The notes under the pieces were generated by a model. The model was not told where the DNA came from. It saw nothing but the letters and a program-made list of their open reading frames with translations, and did no database searches. Below, piece after piece: positions 4,780-54,100 of a stretch of DNA of 64,000 nucleotides. Origin of the DNA: a virus; IMG/VR virus record IMGVR_UViG_3300022751_000016, positions 64,001 to 128,000 of that record. One strand, given 5' to 3'. The position numbers were made by a program, and so were the translations under genes. Numbering within the stretch: the stretch's first letter is position 1; every line of letters begins with the position of its first letter.

Positions 4780-5388
4780 ATGAAAGTAAAAATATTAACA
4801 AGTTATCCTAAACAAACATTCAATGTTGATAATGTATTTTTCAGCAGTGATTTACACGAGGGGCACCAAGCAATGATAGATTTTGGACGTAATTTTAATA
4901 GTCTGGATGAAATGAATCTTCATATTGTTGATGAAATTAATAGAAAGGTAGGAGAAAAAGACTTACTTGTTGTGCTTGGTGATACGATGATGAGTGAAAA
5001 AGATTATAACGGATTTTTAAGGAAGTTAAATTGTAATAGTATTATCATGTTATATGGTAATCACTGTTCGCTTTCTAAAATGTTAAGTATAACCTCTGAT
5101 AAGTTATTATATCAAGGATATTATTTAGAACTTAGTGTTGATGGTCAAATTATTTGTTGTCAACACTATCCATCTTTTAATTGGAATTACCAAGACCAAA
5201 ATTCAATTTCTTTGCATGGACATTTACACGCTGATGAAAGTGATGTAGTAAAAGAAATTCATAAATATAAAAGCATGGATGTGGGAATTGATAATTATTA
5301 TAAAATGTTTAGAGAATATAATGTTTTCTCCTTCGCCGAAATAAAAGAAATATTAAAAGATAAATTAATTATAGGAAGACATGGCTAA
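4780..5388 (+). CDS. Calcineurin-like metallophosphoesterase
   Basis: SDLH-GH, LGD, GNH, HGHLH motifs. Confidence 0.9.
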   Translation: MKVKILTSYPKQTFNVDNVFFSSDLHEGHQAMIDFGRNFNSLDEMNLHIVDEINRKVGEKDLLVVLGDTMMSEKDYNGFLRKLNCNSIIMLYGNHCSLSKMLSITSDKLLYQGYYLELSVDGQIICCQHYPSFNWNYQDQNSISLHGHLHADESDVVKEIHKYKSMDVGIDNYYKMFREYNVFSFAEIKEILKDKLIIGRHG

Positions 5389-5869: not shown

Positions 5870-6637
5870 ATGATATTAGAAAGACCAATAATTTTCTTTG
5901 ATATTGAGTCAACAGGAGTTGAAACAGAGACTGCAAGGATAGTAGAATTAGCTTGTATAAAATACAATCCTGACGGCACAAAAGAAGAGAAAACAATTAA
6001 AGTAAATCCAACTATTCCAATTCCACTTGAAGCAAGTGAGGTTCATGGAATCACAGACGAAGAAGTAAAAGATTTACCTACTTTTAAACAGTATGCTCAA
6101 GCTATTAGAAATTGGTTTGAGGGTTCTGATTTAGCAGGGTTTAATTCAAATAATTATGATGTCCCTCTTCTTTCTGCGGAATTTGAGAGAGCAGGGCTAG
6201 AGGGTATTAATTGGAACCCTACTTTATTTGATGTATTAACTCTTTATAGGGACTTGTTTCCCAATACATTGTCAGCCGTATATGAAAGACTTACAGGAGA
6301 AGAGTTAGAAGGAGCACACGGAGCTGTAGCGGATATATTAGCTACTAAACAGATTGCAGATATAATTTTTCCTTTATTAGTTGAGAAGTCAGAAACTCCA
6401 ATTGAAACGCCTAGAGATGTAGATGAGTATTTGCAGGGTGACAAGAAAAGATTTGACTTAAGTGGTAAGATGTATATAGATGTTGATGGAATTGTAAAAT
6501 GGAATTTTTCTAAGAATAAGGATAAAGCAGTATTAGCTGATGCGGGATTTGTAAATTGGTTTATGCAGCAAGGATTTCCGCAAGAAAGTAAGAATAAGAT
6601 AAAAGAATTACAAAATAATAATAAAAAAGAATCGTAG
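5870..6637 (+). CDS. dnaQ: DnaQ-like DEDDh 3'-5' exonuclease (Pol III epsilon family)
   Basis: FDIESTG, HGIT, FNSNNYD, AHGAVAD. Confidence 0.92.
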   Translation: MILERPIIFFDIESTGVETETARIVELACIKYNPDGTKEEKTIKVNPTIPIPLEASEVHGITDEEVKDLPTFKQYAQAIRNWFEGSDLAGFNSNNYDVPLLSAEFERAGLEGINWNPTLFDVLTLYRDLFPNTLSAVYERLTGEELEGAHGAVADILATKQIADIIFPLLVEKSETPIETPRDVDEYLQGDKKRFDLSGKMYIDVDGIVKWNFSKNKDKAVLADAGFVNWFMQQGFPQESKNKIKELQNNNKKES

Positions 6638-9762: not shown

Positions 9763-10848
9763 ATGTTAAAGAAAATTAAAGAGAAACGCATAGAACAGTT
9801 TAAAACTGATTTTCCAGGATTTAAGGTATCAGAAAAAACAGGTTCTATTTATTGTAGAATAGGAGTAGTTGAATCAACAAAGCAAACTAAACATACAGGA
9901 AGAGCTGTTACAAAAAATACGTTATCTAAAATAGGACAACTTCAAGAGTGGAAAGTTTCTGTGGCTCGTTATGTTTATTTATTAACGCCAGCAGGAAGGC
10001 TTATGGTGAGTAAAAGCGGAGGTAATTTTAAATCAGTTGGACTTAAACAAGTAAGATTAGAAAACCCAGAATTACAAAATACATTTTTTATAGGTAAGAA
10101 GTATGAATGGTTAAAAGATTATCCTAATTTATATCCTTATAGACTATTTCAAGGTTTTAATTCATTAGGAGAAGTTAAGAAGTTCTTAGGTTTTTCTTTT
10201 ATATCAGACGAAGAATTTACTAAACTTTTCACAGCAGATTGGTTTGATTTTTTAACTCCTATGATTTTAGCTAAAGACAAGAAAAATGTAGTTAGGTTGT
10301 ATAAGAATTTAGAAACAGATGATAAGGACTTACTTAATGACTACATTAATTTGTGCCAAGAGCATAATATGGAAATAGAAATTCCTGCGGGTAAAAACAG
10401 ATTGGAAGAGTTACATACTCAAGCAGTTTGGGAAGTTAATAAAAAAACTGCTGAAAATTATTCTAAAGAAAAGCGGTATGAAATAAAAGAAGAGTTTACT
10501 GAAGTTTGGAAAGAACGCGGACTAAAATTCAAAAGATTAGAAACTCCTTATGAAATGTACGCTCAAGGAATAAAACAGCAACACTGTATAGGCACTAATT
10601 ATGCTAAAACTTTAAATAGGTATGCGTTCTACAGTTTTGAAGATAATGGCGAAAATTACGAAATGCAAATCTATGAGAACGGTAGTATAGGTCAATTTTA
10701 CGGTAGAAAAAATAAACAAGTTCCAAATTTCCTTAGAGAGAAAGTCACAAAAGATGTAAATTTAAAATATTCATTAATAGACATACAACCAGATTTAAAA
10801 AACTATCCAATGCTAAAGGAAGTTGAAGAAAGTATTTGGGATTTCTAA
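9763..10848 (+). CDS. PcfJ-like domain protein
   Basis: C-terminal QG..QQHCIG..Y ... QFYGRKN motif. Confidence 0.7.
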   Translation: MLKKIKEKRIEQFKTDFPGFKVSEKTGSIYCRIGVVESTKQTKHTGRAVTKNTLSKIGQLQEWKVSVARYVYLLTPAGRLMVSKSGGNFKSVGLKQVRLENPELQNTFFIGKKYEWLKDYPNLYPYRLFQGFNSLGEVKKFLGFSFISDEEFTKLFTADWFDFLTPMILAKDKKNVVRLYKNLETDDKDLLNDYINLCQEHNMEIEIPAGKNRLEELHTQAVWEVNKKTAENYSKEKRYEIKEEFTEVWKERGLKFKRLETPYEMYAQGIKQQHCIGTNYAKTLNRYAFYSFEDNGENYEMQIYENGSIGQFYGRKNKQVPNFLREKVTKDVNLKYSLIDIQPDLKNYPMLKEVEESIWDF

Positions 10849-10879
10849 ATTTAGTAATGGTTACAGAAAAAATAACCAA

Positions 10880-10911
10880 TTTGGAAAATAGAATGATATT
10901 AAGTATATTTG
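10880..10911 (+). promoter_or_regulatory. Canonical Bacteroidota promoter TTTG-N20-TATATTTG
   Basis: TTTG 10880-10883, TATATTTG 10904-10911; faces a non-coding region. Confidence 0.8.
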
Positions 10912-10932
10912 CAGGACATAATAGAAATACAA

Positions 10933-11036
10933 GATTTAGACTCTCACCTCTAAAATCGTAAAGATAATAAGTATAAAAACTTAGGAAACTAACGGACAGG
11001 AAAGATGGGTGAGAGCTCTTTTCGTCCGTTTTTTGT
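10933..11036 (+). ncRNA. Kissing-loop RNA element, copy 1
   Basis: Hairpin loop CTCTCACC (10941-10948) is complementary to loop GGTGAGAG (11008-11015) of a terminator-like hairpin. Confidence 0.65.
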
Positions 11037-11040
11037 TTTA

Positions 11041-11650
11041 TATGGATTCTATTTCTGCCAATTATACGTGACTTGATGTTAATATCATCGTATATCCTTC
11101 TAATTATTTTAGTCGGCGTCAAAGGGAAGAGTGAGCTATTTAATAGTTATCTACGCCTGAGTATAGGGGAGTTTTACGCATTTATGTATACCTTTATCCT
11201 GTTGGCAATTTAATTGTTGATAGAGGTCAGTTTCTCCCCACTTCACAAAGCAGATAGTTACTAAATTAAAAAGGATTTCAGAAATTCACTTCATGCGATG
11301 GAGTAAACAAAATAACTGAGGATTCTCAAAAGGAGTCTAACTCTGAGGGCTTGGGGGCTTGCCCTATATTTATCTTAATTAATTATATCGCAATTAGTAA
11401 ATTGTTTTCACTGCAAAGCTTTAGTATGTCGCCAAAACTATAGTTCGGCGGGAAAATATATAGATAAGTAAAAGCTTATAAAAATGGCGACAGAATATAC
11501 TACTTGCAGTGGATAGGTAATTAACAGTTTTGAATGTATTACTTAGTAGTTTATGTTGTGGCGGATTTATAGATGAAGATAGGAACGTATAAAACTGAAA
11601 GTATTAATTCCGCGCCACAAAAGAATATAAGTAAACAATCACAAACTGTA
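11041..11650 (+). ncRNA. Putative large structured ncRNA (or structured origin)
   Basis: ORF-free; many nested long-range helices (see findings). Confidence 0.55.
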
Positions 11651-11712
11651 AAAAAACATTATATGAATTAGCGGGTATTTTAAGGGAAACTATGTTAAAT
11701 TTTAAAATTTCT

Positions 11713-11743
11713 CTTGTTTAATCATAAATAAGGTGTATATTTG
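11713..11743 (+). promoter_or_regulatory. Promoter CTTG-N19-TATATTTG
   Basis: Consensus match upstream of ORF 11767. Confidence 0.75.
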
Positions 11744-11766
11744 TAAAGAATTAAAAAAGTAAAATT

Positions 11767-11982
11767 ATGAAAATAGTAAATATATTGATTGCTTTTATAG
11801 TAACTGCTTCAATTTGCGCAATAGTAGATTTAATTATAAACTATGTAATGGCAAATACCGTTGAGTGGAAAGTCTTAAGTGAGCAATTGTGGAAAATACT
11901 AATAAGTATAGGTAGAATAAGTTTAGGCTATTTTTACGGAAGTATAATTTTTAAAGAGATTTTAAAACAGTTAGAGAACTGA
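11767..11982 (+). CDS. Small membrane protein
   Basis: Two hydrophobic segments. Confidence 0.7.
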   Translation: MKIVNILIAFIVTASICAIVDLIINYVMANTVEWKVLSEQLWKILISIGRISLGYFYGSIIFKEILKQLEN

Positions 11983-11984
11983 TT

Positions 11985-12203
11985 ATGAGTAACACAAAAA
12001 ACATTAATGTAATCACTATAAATAGTCCATTCTACTTCTTATTTGCAATAGGAACAGCAATGATAGGATATAATATTCATGACAGCATATTTTGGTCTTT
12101 TATTGACTTCTTTTTCGCGCCGTTAGTTTGGATTAAGTGGTTAATAATGCACCAAGTAAATTTATCAATAATAAAAGAGACGTTTAATTTTTTCTTAAAA
12201 TAA
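11985..12203 (+). CDS. Small membrane protein
   Basis: Hydrophobic and aromatic-rich. Confidence 0.7.
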   Translation: MSNTKNINVITINSPFYFLFAIGTAMIGYNIHDSIFWSFIDFFFAPLVWIKWLIMHQVNLSIIKETFNFFLK

Positions 12204-12359
12204 AATTATGAAATACTATTATTTAGCAGTCACTATAATTATAGTATCTGTATTAGCATCATTATGTTATTCGGACTATTTAAAATCGAGCAAAACAGAG
12301 AGAGAGAGAACAGGAAATAAAAAAGTTAGAATTATTAATTAAACTGAAAGAACAAAACA

Positions 12360-12665
12360 ATGAATAAATCTTTTAAAAATAAAAGTCAAATAGCGTTAGA
12401 CGATAAACACTTCTTAATTCCAGACTCAGATTCAGGAATCATCCTTGTATTCCACGAAATTCGCCAAAGAAAAAAGAAAGACAGTGAAGAACTAGAAGAC
12501 TACGAATTCACTGACCGTTGGTATTTCACAAGAATCGTACAAAGTCTAAGAAAATACACAGAATTAACAGAGAACAGTTGTAAGACTATTGATGAAATTC
12601 TAGAAAAAGTGAAGTATAATACAGAACTTTTAGATAGGTTAGATGTTGAATTTAAACAGTTTTAA
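12360..12665 (+). CDS. Hypothetical protein
   Basis: ORF track. Confidence 0.75.
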   Translation: MNKSFKNKSQIALDDKHFLIPDSDSGIILVFHEIRQRKKKDSEELEDYEFTDRWYFTRIVQSLRKYTELTENSCKTIDEILEKVKYNTELLDRLDVEFKQF

Positions 12666-12668
12666 TTT

Positions 12669-13064
12669 ATGTCTGCACCACATATACATGCAATATCCTC
12701 AGCTAAAAAGTTTGGAGGTGTTATGGAAGATTATATGAATATACATGCTAAGATGGATTGTTCTAAAGCTTACTTTCCAGATAATAGGCATAGAGTGCTA
12801 ACACATACAATGTTTTGGGTTAAAGAAGTGATGATTCCTTTGTTTGGAGAAATAATAACAAATTCTGATAATAAAATAGTAAGTGTAAAAGATGTTTGTG
12901 AACAACACATTTTAGAAGACTATAGACAGAAATTTATACCAACTCCACAGGATTTTATTGAAAATATGGAATTTAAAACTTGGATGCAAAATGGGAGAGG
13001 TGTGCCAAGTTCCTCAAAATTATTATATAAACAAAAAGATTATAAACAATTAATAGAGAATTAA
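12669..13064 (+). CDS. DUF6915-like His-rich protein
   Basis: P..HA.SSAKKFGG..EDY..IH..MD.SK...D.RHR..TH ... EQHILED. Confidence 0.75.
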   Translation: MSAPHIHAISSAKKFGGVMEDYMNIHAKMDCSKAYFPDNRHRVLTHTMFWVKEVMIPLFGEIITNSDNKIVSVKDVCEQHILEDYRQKFIPTPQDFIENMEFKTWMQNGRGVPSSSKLLYKQKDYKQLIEN

Positions 13065-15601: not shown

Positions 15602-16378
15602 ATGAGTAGAAGAAAAACTCCATTATTAAGTATACCTTCCTTGGCAGAAATGCAACAGGGAGGAGTATATAAATTTACAAACTCTATTAATGATTTTACC
15701 TATATTGGGAGTTGTAAAAAGTTCTCAGATAGATTAGCGGGGCATATTTGCGATTCTAAACGAGGCAAAGCAAATAGATATTTAATAGAGTTTGTAAATG
15801 ATTTTGGATGGGAAACTATTTCTTTTGAAATATTGGAAGTAGTTGAAGATTTCTCTTTATTAAAAACGCGGGAGAATCATTGGATAGGACTTTTTGATTT
15901 TAATTTATTATGGAATTGTGCACCAAAAGCAGACACTTTAGTAGGGACTAAGATGCCTTTGACACATAAAATTAAGAGTTCTGAAAGAATGAAAGGTAAT
16001 ACACTTAGCGTAGGTTATGTTCACTCTAAGGAGAAGGGTATAAAATGCGCAAAGTATTGGGAAGAGCACCCAAAAGAGAAGGAAGAAATGATTTCTAAAA
16101 ATAAAGAATCGCAGTCTAAGGTAGATAGGAGTTCTTGGGAAAAAGGAAAGATTATAGAAGTTTATTATGAAAAAGTCTTGATTGATACAGTAGAGGGATT
16201 AAAAAATGTAGAGACAAAATACAATTTAGGACATACCTATGCGAGTAAAATGTTACAAGGTAAGAAACCACCATTGAGGGGTTACTTTTTAAAAACAATA
16301 GGTTCTTATTTTATATCTGATAAAGTCTATATCAGAAGATATTTAAATGGAAAAGAAATAATAGAAAATAAATTATGA
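15602..16378 (+). CDS. GIY-YIG homing endonuclease with NUMOD-type DNA-binding repeats
   Basis: GVYKFTN...YIGS...R..H, RE, N; H..KSSERMKG and HSKE repeats. Confidence 0.88.
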   Translation: MSRRKTPLLSIPSLAEMQQGGVYKFTNSINDFTYIGSCKKFSDRLAGHICDSKRGKANRYLIEFVNDFGWETISFEILEVVEDFSLLKTRENHWIGLFDFNLLWNCAPKADTLVGTKMPLTHKIKSSERMKGNTLSVGYVHSKEKGIKCAKYWEEHPKEKEEMISKNKESQSKVDRSSWEKGKIIEVYYEKVLIDTVEGLKNVETKYNLGHTYASKMLQGKKPPLRGYFLKTIGSYFISDKVYIRRYLNGKEIIENKL

Positions 16379-28731: not shown

Positions 28732-30756
28732 ATGGATTTAGATAATATTTACTGTGGTGATTTGGAATCTGATAATTTAGCAGAGGATGTTACTAAAATA
28801 CACGTACTAAGTATTGCTTGGAAAAGTGATGGAGTGTGGAAAATAAAATCTACACCTAACTATGATGATATGCGAAAATTATTATCTGACCCTACAAAAG
28901 TTATTGCAATACATAATGGAATTAGATTCGATGGTAGAGTTTTAGAGCAGATACTTGGTATAGAGATAAAAGCAACTATTATTGATACACTAGCTTTAGC
29001 TTGGTACATAGATTGTGCTAGAGGTAAGGAAGGTAAAAAGTATGGTTTAGCGTACTACGGGGAAGATACTTTTAATACTCCAAAGCCAAAGATTGATGAT
29101 TGGGAGAATCTAACCTATGAAGAGTATAAATTTCGTTGTGAGGAGGATACCAAAATAACCTATCAACTTTGGGAGTATCTACTCTTAAAATTAAGAGCTG
29201 TTTATGACAACGACGAAGATATTGTCAGAGTTATAAAATACCTTAATTTTATCATGCTTTGCGCCAGAAAACAAGAAGAACAAAAGATTCAAGTTGATTT
29301 AGAAAAATTAGAAAGTAATTTAAAATATTTTGAGGCATTAAAAGAAGAAAAAATTAAACAGCTTATTGAGGCAATGCCTAAAATTCCTAACAAAATAACA
29401 AAAAACAGACCTAGTACTTATCATAAAAAAGATGGTTCTCTTTCTAAAGCTGCCGAAGAGTGGGAAAATATGCTAACTTCTTGTAACTTACCAAAAGATT
29501 ATAGTGGAAGTATAGATGTCATAAAATCTTATGAATTAGGAAACCCAAACTCAGTGAAACAAAAAAAAGATTGGTTGTATAGCTTAGGTTGGATTCCTCA
29601 AACATTTGTGCACAATAGAGACAAGCAGACAGGAGATGTAAAGAAAGTGGAACAAATACTTACAGAAGAGAAAATGCTTTGCCCAAGCGTCTTAAAACTA
29701 GTTGAAAAAGAACCTGCAATTGAATTGCTAGATGGACTTTCAGTTCTTACCCATAGAATTGGAATATTTAAGGGATTGCAGAAAGCAGTTGATAAAAATG
29801 GATTTGTTATACAAGGTTTAATGCAGTTGGCGGTAAGTCTTCGCTGGCAACACGCCCTGATTGTAAACTATCCTCGCGTTACAGGTAAAGGAGACATCAG
29901 GGATGGTAAATGGATTAGGGAGTGTCTAATAGCTGGGAAAGGTTATAAATTTGTACAGAGTGACCTTAGTGGAATTGAATCAAGGACATCCGACCACTAC
30001 ACGTTCAATCTGAATAGAGAACTAATCGAAGAAACGCAGAGACCATTTTTTGACCCACACACAAAAATTTCTGTTGTTAGTAACTTAATGACGGAAGATG
30101 AAGAAATATGGTTTAAGTGGAAGAAGGAGAATAAAGAGAGGAAAGAAAAGGGGATAGAAGAGGACTTACCTCCTGAAGCTTTTGGGACACCCTCAGATAA
30201 TTTTTACATACTCCAAGATTTAGATAAGGATGAAAGTAAGAAGTTAATGAACAGATTAAAAGAGGCTAGGAGTAAAGGAAAGACTTGTAACTACGCATCA
30301 CTCTACTTAGTTGGCAGTCAGACACTTGCTAGAAATTTAAACATTTCTAAGAAAGAAGCACAAGGACTAATAGATGCATATTGGAAAATTCATTGGGCAG
30401 TAAAAAAAGCTACGGAAAGTTTTGACATAAAAAAAGTAGGGGATGAGCTCTGGATATTAAATCCTATATCGAGATTCAGACATAATTTGCGTTTTGAAAA
30501 GGACTCCTTCTCGGTTGTAAACCAGTCGAGTGCAGTTTATTGCTTTAACATGTGGCTATATAACATAACTAGACTTGGAGCTTTTCCCATATTGCAGACC
30601 CATGATGACGAATTACTAAGATGTAAGGAAGAAGAAGTTGATAAGTACGTAGCTATAACCAATAAGGCAATGGAAAACTTGAATAAGCAGTTAAAGTTAA
30701 ATGTAGAATTAGCTTGTGAGGTACAAGTTGGTGATAACTTTGCAGAGACACACTAA
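28732..30756 (+). CDS. polA: Family A DNA polymerase with 3'-5' exonuclease (T7-like, Tyr at E. coli 762 equivalent)
   Basis: DLE, HNGIRFD, IDTL exo motifs; motif A DLSGIESR, motif B RSKGKTCNY, motif C THDD. Confidence 0.95.
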   Translation: MDLDNIYCGDLESDNLAEDVTKIHVLSIAWKSDGVWKIKSTPNYDDMRKLLSDPTKVIAIHNGIRFDGRVLEQILGIEIKATIIDTLALAWYIDCARGKEGKKYGLAYYGEDTFNTPKPKIDDWENLTYEEYKFRCEEDTKITYQLWEYLLLKLRAVYDNDEDIVRVIKYLNFIMLCARKQEEQKIQVDLEKLESNLKYFEALKEEKIKQLIEAMPKIPNKITKNRPSTYHKKDGSLSKAAEEWENMLTSCNLPKDYSGSIDVIKSYELGNPNSVKQKKDWLYSLGWIPQTFVHNRDKQTGDVKKVEQILTEEKMLCPSVLKLVEKEPAIELLDGLSVLTHRIGIFKGLQKAVDKNGFVIQGLMQLAVSLRWQHALIVNYPRVTGKGDIRDGKWIRECLIAGKGYKFVQSDLSGIESRTSDHYTFNLNRELIEETQRPFFDPHTKISVVSNLMTEDEEIWFKWKKENKERKEKGIEEDLPPEAFGTPSDNFYILQDLDKDESKKLMNRLKEARSKGKTCNYASLYLVGSQTLARNLNISKKEAQGLIDAYWKIHWAVKKATESFDIKKVGDELWILNPISRFRHNLRFEKDSFSVVNQSSAVYCFNMWLYNITRLGAFPILQTHDDELLRCKEEEVDKYVAITNKAMENLNKQLKLNVELACEVQVGDNFAETH

Positions 30757-43258: not shown

Positions 43259-43550
43259 TGTTGTATATTTCGTTAGCTTTTTCTATTGCGGCATTTATAG
43301 CATTAATTCTATTTTCTTGAAATTGACTACATTCAGTTCTAACATCATTTTGTAAAATATAGGAATCAAATGTTTCATCAATACATATTAAAACTCCTAT
43401 GTAAATCCCAACTGAATCAAAGAAATCAATTATTAAAGCATTTTTACAAGTATCTGATAAACTATGGTAATTTTTATACTCTTCTATTGGCGTATTTCTT
43501 TCAAAGAACCACATTCCAAAATCTTCATTACATTTACCTGTCAATTTCAT
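43224..43550 (-). CDS. Hypothetical protein
   Basis: First gene after promoter. Confidence 0.75.
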   Translation of the reverse strand: MKLTGKCNEDFGMWFFERNTPIEEYKNYHSLSDTCKNALIIDFFDSVGIYIGVLICIDETFDSYILQNDVRTECSQFQENRINAINAAIEKANEIYNNDNMLHGSQTK

Positions 43551-48179: not shown

Positions 48180-51100
48180 TTATTCTTTATCTCTAGCTAT
48201 GTACATTAAAGGGCTAAGTTTAAATACGTCGTTTCTCACTTCTGTTTGATATCTCAGATTTTCAAATTGTTGTGCTGGGTCTCTCAATTTAATGAAACTA
48301 TTTAAGATTGGTGTATTTTTTCTCAAAGTTTCTACTCCTTTACTTTCATCAAACATATTGGACATCTGAACCATTGTATCATAAGCTAAGACAGGTGATT
48401 CCATTATTTGTTGGTAATTTGAATAAATACCTAAATTCGACTGATAAACCTCACTATTTAATCTAGCTAAGATTAGATTTGTAAATTGTAAGCTATAAAC
48501 ATCTTTTTTGTCAGGGTCATCTGCAATTCCGCGAACTAAGAGTGATAAAAGCATTAGAGTATTGGCAATTACTACATCCTTCATTACTCTTTTTAAATTA
48601 GCTTGTCTTAAATCAACTTCTTCCCAATTTTCAGCATCTTTATTTGTGCCGTTATACTCATCTTTAAATGCTTTCAAAATATTACCGCCATTCTGTTTCC
48701 ACTCATTTATTACACCACCTAAAAACTTATAAGTAGAGTTATAACTTCCTTCTTCTAAAGACCTTGTTAATGAGTTAAACTGTTGTGTTTTAAATCTAGA
48801 TTCTGTTAGTGGGATAATGAAAGATTTGTGTGTAAGTAATAAATTCCACAAGAAATGTCTTTGTATCCCTACTTTTTCTTCCTGTGGGAGTTGCATATCA
48901 ATCTTTACATTTAAATTCTTTGTTTGTGCGCGAATATCATTACTGATACTTAGTATTTCTTCATCTAATCGAGTTCCTTCTAGATTTATAGCTTGTCCTA
49001 GCTGTTCTCTATTAAAACTCACTTCTCCATCTTTAGTTTCTATATAGTTGTAAATAGGATTGTTATCATATTCTTTCCACATTTCTTCCACTTGCTTCAG
49101 AGATTTTCCCTGTCTTCTATGCACTTGTCTGAAAGACTGGAAATTATGTATTCTTCCATCTGCAATTCTGTAGTCGTGCAAAGTAGTTAACAAGTTCTTA
49201 GCAAATATAGGATAAGCCACTGCTTGATAAAGTCCCATTGCTGTTCTTGGAGCAGCTCTGGCTAACCACCCATATTGTGAATTTCTAAGACCTACTTCTA
49301 AATCAAAGGCTTGAAAAAATTGACCCAAGACATTTAATTTAGCTTCGGTGTTTACTTGTCCAAATTCTAATAACGAATCTTTAACCAGCTTGTCAAATTC
49401 CTTAGAGCCTTTTTTATAAGTGTTGTTTTGCATATATTGTCCTGCCCATCTTTCTTGAAGTTGTGCCACTTTCATAGTGCCATACCCCGTCAAAGAGATA
49501 ATAGGAGAGAATCCTAAGTTTTTTAAACTAATGAATTTCATTCCACTTTTAACAATTTTAGCTCCTGACAATGTTCCAAATGCTGTTTCAAAGGGTAATG
49601 TTACTTCCTCTTTAATTCCATAGTATTGATAGTCAATAACAGCTTTAACTTGTTTGTAAGCATTTGTTGATTCAACAGCTTTTCCATTATATTGTCTTAA
49701 ATTAATAGAATCTGAAATACTATTAATATCTCCATAAGCATTAACTTTAGCTTTTCTTAGGAATCCTTCTTTTCCGCGCATAAATAAAGTGTAGAATAAG
49801 TCTTCTGTTGCTAAATCTTTACTGTCTCTTAATTTCTGTACATACGGCTGTGGAATTACATTTATACCATTATATCTTTCTCCTTCTACTTGTTCTTCCT
49901 GAGTGTATGCAAAGGTGTCCTTCAAAGCAGCTACAACTGTGGAAATAGATGGGTTTGCAACTAAACTTTTAGTTCTTTCTAATCCGTTTTTTCTCACTTG
50001 CGGCATTGTAAAATAATTATATCCTGTATCAGCCATACCTTCTGCATCTAAACTAGCTTCGTTATAATCTAAAACGGCATTATATACTTTAGCTAATTTT
50101 TGATTTGAAGAGGAATCAACTATAATTCTATCATTCTCCACTTTTACATTTTGTCCGAATTTATCATAGAATGCTTTATTTTTAAACTTTGCTACATTTG
50201 GTTGTAAATACCCTACTCTTGAAGTTCTATCATAATTAGGGTTTATACTTCCATCTTCCTGTGCATCATAGAATGAGTAGTTAGGATTTATATTTATGAA
50301 ATTAGTGGGGTCATTTACAGTGTCTTGCAATAACTCAGTTAAATTTTCCGTTGTTTGTAATTCTTGTCTAAACTGTGAATAGCTCGCTGGAGCGAATCTT
50401 TTATAGTATGGTAGTAATTTAGTCTTACCATATTCTTGCATGAAATAAATATACTCCTCCGTATTATTTAAATCTAATTCTCTTTCATTAGCCAGTCTCT
50501 CTATACTTAGAGGTAATGTAGCTCTTTTACCTAGTCTAAATTGCTCAATTTGATATTTATCATTTAAAAGCTTATTTTTATTTCTTGTTGTTGAATTTTG
50601 CCCAATAAAATCTATCAGTTTATCTAATTGTTTCAATTGCTCTTCTTCTGAGGTAGATGGGTCTATATTCAGTCCTAAATCTGCCACTTCTTTATTGAAA
50701 GATTCATTTGACTCACTAATTCCTATTGAAACCTCTCTTTCTTCAAATGTAGATTTAATGTATTTTGAAGCTTTCTCATAATTAGCTTCCAAACGTTCTT
50801 GTACATTTCTAATACTATCTTTTGAAGTTTGAGATATGTCTTCACTTATTTCAGAAGGACTCCCTTTTTTTGCCCAAGTTTTTAAAATACCACGAACTCT
50901 TATTCTATCTTCTTCGATGCTTTGAATAAGTTCTTGTACTTCTGGATTAGCTTGTTTAACTGTTTCTAATTTATCTAAAATATCTTGACTTTCGGCATCA
51001 CCCATACTAGACCAGAAAGCTTCACTAAATCCTATGAAGGAATTTAAGTTTATAGCTTTAATAGCCGCTTCTCTTCCTTTTGTATTGTCTATATTTGTAA

Positions 51101-54100
51101 TTAAATCTAGATATGTTTGAGGTAAGGTTTCTATAGTGAATAAGTCTTCTCTTTGCTCTTCCGTTAAAGCTAATTTATTATCTTTTCTGTTTTGAATTAT
51201 CGTTTTATCCGCCGTTTGTGTATCTCCTGTAATTTGTCTGTACTTTTCTATAAACTTTACATCAGAACTAAAAACATTCAAACTGTCCAATTTATTCAAA
51301 TCTAAGGCTATTCTAGCATCTACAGAAATTTCATTTGAAGAAGCTTTAATAATCACTTTACCTGTTTCGTCTCTAACAAGTCTTCCATTAGAATCTCTTT
51401 CGTATTCCAATCCCTTTTTTAGCTCACCACTTTCTGTATAATAGTTTTTAGCCGTTAATCTCCCTCTTTCAAGTATTTCCAAAGCATCTAAATCTGGCAA
51501 TCTTAAACTAGACCTATCTAAAATACCCTCAGCAGTTCTTGCATGCTTCATTATTTGCCCTACACTAGATAAGTATGCGCTGTTCCAAAAAATAGTGTCT
51601 TCTGAAATACCTGCTTCCTGATATTTCTTATTTTGAGCATCATAATACTCCTTAGTTCTTGGTTTTTCATCCAAATCTTGTTCGATACTTAAATCTCTTT
51701 CTATTCTTAGAATATTGTCATTATCAACAGGATTTAAATTCAAAGAATTCTCATCTCTTTGCTGAATAATTTCCTCATCTGTTAGAGTGGAATCTGTAAT
51801 CACTTGTTTGAAAGCTGTTATAAAGTTTTTATTGTGTGCCTCTGTATTAGCTTTAAAATCAAATCTACTTAAAATAAATCCATCTTTTGAACCAAATTCA
51901 GATATTACTTTCTCTGTATAACCCTCATCCTTAATAGCTTTCTGTAATCTCTTTACATTATTTTGATTTTCTTGATGTCCAACATTGTGCATATTAGTTA
52001 TTAAAACTGATAATAGCCCTAAAGTTGGGTCTTTTGAATTAATTAAAGTACCTACATTTGCAGCCAAAGCACTAACATCTTGGTCATTTCTATTCATGTA
52101 GTTTTCAAAATATTGTCGCATAGATTCAGGATAGCCTCCTCTTCTTAATACTTCGTCAATTAGTCTTCTCAGTGTTTGGTCAGTTACTAGACTCTTTGTT
52201 GCAATAACTCTTAAAACTGTATCTTGCGTTTCTTTAATTCTAGATTTTAAAATATCCCAATCATCACCTTTATTGTCTTTGATTAATTCTCCCAATTCTC
52301 CAATAGAAGGTAAGGCTTGTTTAGAAACAAACTCAAATAGTACCACTTCTTCTTGCGATAAAGCATAGTTTTTATTGTTTATAGAGGAATCTTCTAAAGC
52401 TTTTTCTAAATACTTAGAGATGTTGTTAGTTATACCCACTAAAGTAGCAATAGCCTCTACTTCCGCTGTATCTTGTACTTGCAAGTCTAAATTTTTAAGT
52501 TTTAATAAGTCTACACTGCTTATAGGACTTACACCTCTTGTTTTTCTTAAAGACTTTGCCGCACTTTCTAATTGACTTGCTGTTTTTCTTGCTGCTACGA
52601 TTAACTTATTTTCAGGAGTTCCTGCTTCTAGAGAATAAAATCTGAAAGGATTGTCACTTAAATCTCTATTTGCAAAAAATACACTGTCTTTCAGTAATAA
52701 GCTATTAACATCTTCTAAGTATTTACTTAGTTCTTGCGCGTATTCAGGCTTGAAATAATTTGCTATTCTATCCACAAATGTTTGTATAAATTCCAGAGCT
52801 TTTGAAATGAAGTTATTAGATGGAGCAATATTTCTATTCAAAACAGCTTTTCCAACTATTTTACCTAATATCTCTTTTCTTACAGCCGTTTCTAATAATT
52901 CTGGCGTATATTCCTCCGCATACTTTTTTTTATAAATGTCAGCAAACTGCAACCATTCCTCCGACCTATCAATGTTTCTAAGAATGTCTGCTGTATCTGC
53001 ATCAGGCATAAATTCTACAATGAAATGTCCTAATTCCTCTGCTAACTCATCCTCGCTAATATCTACGCCATCTTTTAGAGCAATTGTTCTCATAGCTATG
53101 TCAGCTAAAGCTCTTGCACTAGGGTCTACACCGTTTCTATTTCTATAGTCTGATACATAATTAGATAGAGAAGTTATTTTAACTCCCATTTTATTCAATA
53201 GATTTAAAATACCTAATTGCGCTTCTTTTTCTGTTTTTAATATAGTTGGTTGTATTATTTGTGTATCTCTTTGAGCTGGGCGATTTTGTGTATAGTATTT
53301 TCCTGCTATAAGTTGGTCTGCATTTTCACTGTACTTTGCTTGTATTTGTTGGTCAGATAATGCGTCAAATTCTTGTTCTGTAATATATGTATCCTCACTT
53401 ACCAAGATTTTATCTTTAACCTTCACTATGTCAAAAACATTTTCATCTCTAATAACTCCACCAAATCCTACATAATTAACAGCATCTTCAGATAAAAGTT
53501 CTGCATTTACATTCTTTTTAAGTTCAGTTTCTCCTTCTGTTATGAATTTATAATCATCGCCAATTCTTATCTTTTCTCCTGATAACAGTCCTTGTTCTAT
53601 TGCTGAATTTATATACCCTACTTCAGAATCTCTATTTACAGACTTAGTTGTTGAAAGTAGTTTTGTAAACTCTCCATTCTGTAAAAATCCTGCTTTTATT
53701 TCATCACTGTTTTTTAAAGCTTCTTTGTAAGAGTTTGTGTAACTTCCATCTGCTGTTTGATAAACAAAGCTTACATTATCTTTTTTTGATATGCTTTGCT
53801 TAAATAACTTTCCTTTTTCGGTTTGAATATCTGAATCTTTAACAGGGATATTATTATTTGCTAAAAATTCATATAAAGAAGTTGCGATTCCTTTTCTTTG
53901 TTGATTTTCATTTACTTTTATGATGTTTGCAAAAAACTGACCATCAGAATCTTTTTTAAGTCCCATAGTGGCTACTTTTTCACCATTACTATTAATAACA
54001 CTTAATCCTATTTTTTCAGTTTCTTTCCTATTTTCTAACGAAGATATTTTACCGTTTATGCCATCATAAATCTCAATGTAAAATTTTTCTCCGTCTTTTG

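Follow-up and report, generated by a model that had tools for sequence, protein, structure and literature searches.

The gap at 10849-11766 of the window (the whole stretch of DNA analysed, 64,000 nucleotides long and covering bases 64001-128000 of an IMG/VR virus record that has 142,450 bp and is rated complete) is real and non-coding, and it contains a conserved promoter and leader whose cargo gene has been lost, followed by two tandem long hairpins in DNA that we found nowhere else. We tentatively read this DNA as an orphan untranslated RNA, made by read-through of the leader, or as a long untranslated spacer, that may have replaced the leader's cargo gene, and we give this reading somewhat less than even confidence. 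For the window the result is mainly a correction. A preliminary description had proposed a multi-domain RNA of about 700 nt in the class of GOLLD and ROOL, and the proposal does not hold in that form: one of the three domains, a third of the proposed fold, is what chance would give, Rfam contains no match, and no homolog lends the orphan stretch comparative support.

The genome belongs to a phage with 30% GC, tightly packed genes and no tRNAs, whose DNA polymerase shares no more than 38% identity with those of named phages and from which all cultured phages are distant. The gap begins after the stop codon (10848) of a PcfJ-like gene (9763-10848, + strand; Pfam PF14284, E 3.5e-10), which has relatives at 61-86% identity and was used as the left synteny anchor, and it ends where coding potential resumes, at the start codon (11767) of a gene for a membrane-like protein of 71 aa (11767-11982, + strand), for which no relatives were present in the word-indexed protein database. 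In one relative, the Logan contig L173, the PcfJ-like gene is followed, about 5 kb downstream, by a TnpB/OrfB_IS605-type gene at 11946-13044.

Among ORF-free stretches the gap ranks first in the window and second in the genome. Under code 11 no ORF of at least 50 aa lies wholly within it, the single listed ORF that touches it being a minus-strand frame of 125 aa (10745-11122) that overlaps the end of the PcfJ-like gene and the first promoter, and no hidden gene appeared in the gap under alternative codes (table 4, TAG=Q, TAA=Q). We also calculated a frame-wise coding score with a three-periodic Markov model trained on the phage's own genes, which was below zero in all six frames across the gap and steadily above zero in the flanking genes. 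The earlier claim that this is the largest non-coding gap of the window is borne out. Outside the window, another gap of this genome (G000), 675 nt long and located at 50922-51596, includes a 73-nt block (G000:C1:51307-51379) that is 92% identical to positions 43308-43380 of G002, where the block sits in the largest ORF-free gap of that genome; the gap of G000 is also partly common to a gap of G003. This is a non-coding element under conservation.

The gap had been described as flanked by two promoters, and this was confirmed. A motif scan located the first one, P1, of Bacteroidota type, at 10879-10911 on the + strand (TTTG at 10879-10882 and TATATTTG at 10904-10911), and the second one, P2, which would serve the next genes, at 11714-11743 on the same strand, with TATATTTG again at 11736-11743. 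Both match the Bacteroidota consensus (TTTG ... TAnnTTTG) and both are kept in the relative L172, at 5078-5135 and 6173-6224, respectively; searches with nhmmer also recovered P1 in L216, G002, G005 and G004. P1 and P2 are the only credible promoters of the gap region and both point along the + strand. Read-through of the leader behind P1, which the preliminary description had suggested as the way in which the RNA is released, is the only visible route to expression of the insert.

This leader consists of 2 hairpins. The first one (10935-10954, + strand), found by reading and folding the sequence, exposes the loop CTCTCACC at 10941-10948, and the second one (10992-11039, + strand), found by a terminator scan, has an intrinsic-terminator-like stem followed by a T-run and exposes the loop GGTGAGAG at 11008-11015, which is complementary to the first loop over 8 nt. 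A leader profile matched G002 (8.4e-40), G005 (4.8e-31), G004 (2.2e-10) and L216 (2.6e-13) in nhmmer searches, the last of which had been added by a 16-mer scan and has the same kissing loops, including an identical loop in hairpin 1, as well as one compensatory difference (C-G to T-A) in the stem of hairpin 2. The leader is about 78% identical to those of the relatives and it is intact here, with the 8-nt loop complementarity preserved and the terminator stem complete. By sequence homology we assign 10879-11039 to a kissing-hairpin and terminator leader cassette, a membership that excludes the insert. The terminator looks strong, which counts against transcription of the DNA beyond it.

What such a leader carries can be seen in the relatives. 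In L172, whose PcfJ is 77% identical, PcfJ is followed in order by a P1-like box, a leader with a T-run and two hairpins of complementary loops, a gene of 281 aa, a P2-like box and further genes. In each of L216, L172 and G004, the cargo behind the leader is a homologous protein of 281-313 aa, which we call X, 52-63% identical between them. No Pfam, PHROG or PDB sequence match was obtained for X, and its neighbours in a protein language model are viral proteins, some of them with HTH_36 or HTH_24 domains. A distant paralog (28-31% identity) is encoded elsewhere in the same genome, at G000 29011-29928. This paralog, outside the window, directly follows a 567-nt ORF-free gap with a strong hairpin at 28859-28978 (gap and gene together at G000:C1:28474-29928), and the same arrangement of gene plus gap was found in G003 and G005.

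In the window, alignment with L216 and L172 revealed a degenerate 5' remnant of gene X at 11042-11100 on the + strand, comprising about 18 degenerate codons from an ATG at 11042, with an in-frame TGA (11069-11071) at codon 10; read from the sequence, it begins MDSISANYT* against MRDILQNYTN in L172. Similarity to L216 and L172 covers the leader and about 55 nt of X, becoming faint towards about 11100, and then stops sharply. Beyond the remnant, the six-frame translation searched with an HMM of X gave E of 0.77 or worse, and collinear tblastn chains of X scored at the level of shuffles (115.6 vs 104.8 +/- 11). On the question of a decayed protein gene the outcome is divided, with a remnant of X at 11042-11100 and nothing beyond about 11100. 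Because the sharp boundary stands beside a leader that is about 78% identical, replacement explains it better than slow decay. X has been lost, and as judged from these alignments it was probably cut after about 18 codons, with about 600 bp of unrelated DNA now occupying the slot up to P2. The in-frame stop in the shortened start of X resembles the scar of a destroyed gene, which weighs against the RNA reading.

The non-coding insert (11100-11700, either strand) is unique, with no homolog in anything searched. Its core (11040-11700) has no second copy in its own genome, no blastn match in the phage collection, and no match in 14 related virus records (5 of them rated at least 92% complete) or in the contigs carrying the closest PcfJ relatives, where tblastx was likewise empty; homologous intergenic regions in related phages, from which covariation might have been read, were thus not found for the core. 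Tight structural patterns of the second and third proposed domains, run against viral, metagenome and genome collections, returned either two chance matches in contigs of 65% GC or none, and a looser first pattern scan of the viral collection returned chance matches only. At the gathering score, cmscan of the whole window against Rfam 15 gave 0 matches, in keeping with the earlier remark that the region is not recognisably GOLLD or ROOL, and at E up to 10 the interval 10700-11900 produced a single chance snoRNA match outside the gap. Motif enrichment (AACAGTT, TGGCG and the 8-mers of the stem boxes) was not informative.

Next, we compared the folding of the region with dinucleotide shuffles. 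All 11 helix pairs that had been listed are present at their coordinates and are complementary; the domains that they were taken to build behave differently from each other. Domain I (11045-11292) gave z-scores of -0.09 on the + strand and -1.28 on the minus strand, and the nesting depth and number of its 6-bp helices are also those of shuffles (P 0.13 and P 0.43, respectively), so the claim of structure fails for this domain. Since similarity to X reaches about 11100, two Domain I helices have their 5' arms (11051-57 and 11094-99) in what is left of the gene. The proposed small G-rich hairpin fares no better, the stretch around it (11295-11400) scoring -0.85 (+) and -2.14 (-). This GC-rich hairpin (11346-11365, + strand), with its weak T-rich tail, forms a weak terminator-like site (11346-11375) upstream of the two long hairpins, which may as a result be poorly transcribed.

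Domains II and III exceed shuffles on both strands, confirming the long hairpins that had been described. Hairpin II (11407-11513) has outer stems CACTGCAA/TTGCAGTG, inner stems TGTCGCCA/TGGCGACA and two small apical hairpins, with z-scores of -4.34 (+) and -3.67 (-). Hairpin III (11524-11649) is built from ACAGTTT/AAACTGT, TTACTTA/TAAGTAA and TTGTGGCG/CGCCACAA below a 49-nt apical part, and scored -3.44 (+) and -4.32 (-). Together (11400-11655) they reached -3.97 (+) and -4.95 (-), and with DNA parameters the hairpins gave values from -4.05 to -4.44 on both strands. The whole 621 nt scored -1.55 on the + strand and -4.05 on the minus strand; the folding comparison thus favours Domains II and III, equally on both strands, and fails Domain I and the + strand as a whole. 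The preliminary description had also taken G-U pairs as favouring the + strand, and this argument was not sustained: 7 such pairs on the + strand against 2 on the minus strand are not significant given the composition, and the z-scores are equal.

Over the genome's first 120 kb, the 256-nt segment at 11393 ranked first of 1874 in two-strand, GC-adjusted energy, at the end of a distribution with a smooth tail. Exact inverted 6-mers numbered 30, compared with 13 in shuffles (P 0.007). No hairpin of the genome has a higher chained exact-seed score than hairpin III; the scores, 18.7 and 16.0, are matched by shuffled genomes, which reach 20-22, and significance therefore rests on the folding energies and the excess of inverted 6-mers. 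We conclude that two tandem long hairpins are real and the remainder is indistinguishable from chance, and that these hairpins are equally good on both strands and as DNA, with no strand preference. Elsewhere in the window, a homing-endonuclease-like gene (15602-16378) contains in its 5' part an 18-bp perfect inverted repeat that closes a 127-nt hairpin at 15673-15799, with z-scores of -4.70 and -4.48 on the two strands.

Sister phages carry a different cargo behind a homologous leader. In G001, G002, G005, G007 and L207 this leader lies just downstream of a helicase gene, and the 680-900 nt that come after it contain no ORF; the element was located at L208:4044-4614 (-), L207:1173-1701, L209:5755-6384, L210:2402-2962 (-) and L211:2094-2723 (-). 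Its 3' 190 nt have a mean column identity of 97%, compared with 66-84% in the flanks. In the variable 5' part, 18 of 47 pairs are changed on both sides, compared with 1-5 when the partners are slid, and 92% of the cells are paired, compared with about 40% for slid partners, values that none of 500 shuffles reached. Where the promoter strand has G-U pairs, its complement has C-A. Covariation and this strand sign together indicate that RNA is made behind such leaders, whose terminator must then be read through. The element had no Rfam match. With its compensatory changes and ultra-conserved 3' block, it makes a strong candidate for a previously undescribed large phage RNA, and a stronger candidate for a new RNA class than the insert of the window.

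The sister RNA and the insert are alike in layout. In each case a homologous promoter and leader precede the element and a P2-type promoter comes after it, the lengths are similar, and the 3' part of the sister RNA also consists of two tandem hairpins, one of them with outer and inner stems and two apical hairpins. They differ in genomic place, the sister RNA lying just downstream of the helicase gene, and they share no sequence: by blastn, nhmmer and Smith-Waterman alignment with shuffles, only promoter and leader are alike. We built 2 covariance models, R1 from the ultra-conserved 3' two-hairpin block of the sister RNA and R2 from its covarying 5' domain. With filters off, R1 had no + strand match on the insert, its best minus-strand matches, on the two hairpins, reaching 11.9 and 11.3 bits at E about 1, which indicates no more than the presence of long hairpins whose inner stems are GC-rich; R2, at E up to 10, matched nothing within 11040-11700. 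The architectural likeness, including a common 12-mer (TTAACAGTTTTG) after the first hairpin, was considered as a sign of kinship and rejected, having failed the Smith-Waterman shuffles, R1 and R2. Elsewhere in the window, R2 matched 49557-49684 on the minus strand, inside a gene of 2042 aa, at 21.2 bits (rough E 0.024) with several non-canonical pairs, which is probably chance.

These observations can be arranged in the following sequence of events. The ancestral order would have been a PcfJ-like gene, P1, the two-hairpin leader with the terminator as its second hairpin, X as the gene of a viral HTH protein of about 285 aa, and P2, an order that still appears in L172. About 600 bp of unrelated DNA would then have taken the place of X within the conserved expression slot. 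From the way in which X in the relatives and the sister RNA must be expressed, we infer + strand transcription of the insert upon read-through of the leader terminator. Such transcription would yield an untranslated RNA about 0.8 kb long, or else a lengthy untranslated spacer continuing into the genes that follow, and the hairpins near the 3' end would likely bind protein, or serve to process or stabilise the transcript. By analogy this RNA reading seems reasonable, given that sister phages place a covarying RNA of 0.7-0.9 kb behind a homologous leader; two tandem hairpins do not amount to a multi-domain fold like that of GOLLD or ROOL.

In different relatives, one conserved promoter and kissing-hairpin leader carries a protein gene, an uncatalogued covarying RNA or the present insert, and these natural variants of the slot form a set with which the roles of large phage RNAs and the control of terminator read-through can be asked about. 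It is a doubtful proposition that the insert is a lineage-specific large ncRNA with the same job as the unrelated sister RNA, and that the slot is a general site for interchangeable large RNAs. If it were true, the leader slot of Bacteroidota-type phages would host large RNAs that can be exchanged for one another and that are able to displace the gene of an HTH protein.

The insert could instead be a non-functional recombination scar, an explanation that we consider possible though rather unlikely. Here the accessory gene X would have been lost to an illegitimate exchange, and the roughly 600 bp of foreign or scrambled DNA that came to lie in its place would so far have escaped purging; the hairpins would have come along from the donor, where they may have been terminators or palindromes, for instance. 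The remnant of X with its in-frame TGA and the abrupt loss of similarity fit such an event, as do the restriction of the insert to this genome, according to the related records and pattern scans, and the chance-level fold of two thirds of its length, and the paralog of X at 29011-29928 may make the loss of X tolerable. However, a dead stretch of 600 bp is unusual in a genome so tightly packed, two adjacent hairpins with z-scores of about -4 each are not expected of junk, promoter and leader are still intact, and sister phages put a selected RNA at the equivalent place behind a homologous leader.

An element that acts at the level of DNA is an improbable explanation. The two imperfect palindromes would work as duplex or extruded DNA, in an origin of replication (for which the P1 transcript might supply the primer), as binding sites of dimeric proteins or as recombination sites. 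Such a role would account for the equal significance of the hairpins on both strands and with DNA parameters, and it would suit their GC-rich 8-bp boxes, which form inverted pairs at a similar spacing of 57-58 nt, as well as the adjoining AT-rich stretch (GC 0.23-0.24), the position in the early/replication arm, 9 kb upstream of a DnaB-like helicase gene, and the HTH DNA-binding protein that the slot normally houses. Nevertheless, TRF and a repeat search found neither iterons nor tandem repeats, the stem boxes are not repeated elsewhere in the genome, GC skew tracks gene direction only, and an essential origin should be conserved, while this DNA is absent from the relatives. An iteron-type origin was accordingly rejected, the AT-rich stretch being present and the direct repeats absent. 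The folded ssDNA origin that the preliminary description had offered as an alternative finds neither support nor contradiction in these results, the hairpins folding just as well with DNA parameters and iterons being absent. An integron attC site was rejected as well, given that on reading the sequence the R''/R' cores RYYYAAC ... GTTRRRY are missing from both hairpins; the hairpins also showed no similarity to an attC-like palindrome near the recombinase gene at the start of the window.

Two further explanations are very improbable. According to the first one, the leader drives a hydrophobic ORF of 45 aa (11076-11213), similar to a type I toxin or membrane peptide, and the rest is 3' UTR; this ORF does begin 40 nt past the T-run of the leader and has two predicted hydrophobic segments, but it has no homolog among 1.84 billion representative proteins and a negative coding potential, a similar ORF in the RNA of sister phages is not kept in frame, and hydrophobic ORFs arise by chance in T-rich, AT-rich DNA, so that it is probably a chance ORF of this kind. 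According to the second one, the slot holds a pseudogene of X decayed over its whole length, for which the first 18 or so codons stand at the right place and the slot, of about 680 bp, is near the length of X (about 860 bp), but the HMM and tblastn results reported above speak against it, and uniform decay cannot explain a total loss beside so well preserved a leader.

The untranslated RNA or spacer that we favour can be compared with several known systems. GOLLD and ROOL are large ornate RNAs that constitute Rfam families and have been resolved by cryo-EM (PMC12286853). They resemble the insert in being phage-borne, ORF-free and several hundred nucleotides long, and the insert differs from them in having no Rfam match, no homologs or covariation, and support for no more than two simple long hairpins in place of a multi-domain fold. 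Early transcripts of phage T7 contain hairpins at which RNase III processes them. Hairpins II and III share with those hairpins a long, irregular shape with upper and lower stems split by internal loops and, if our reading is right, a place in the untranslated part of an early polycistronic transcript; they are about twice as long. In T4-type phages, PeSL are promoter and stem-loop cassettes that flank shuffled early genes. Unlike PeSL, the present cassette uses Bacteroidota-type promoters and a two-hairpin leader with complementary loops, and the left breakpoint of the insert falls inside the cargo gene and not at the cassette. The likeness to PeSL lies in repeated modules of promoter and hairpin that border a slot whose cargo varies among related phages, this cargo being gene X, the sister RNA or the insert.
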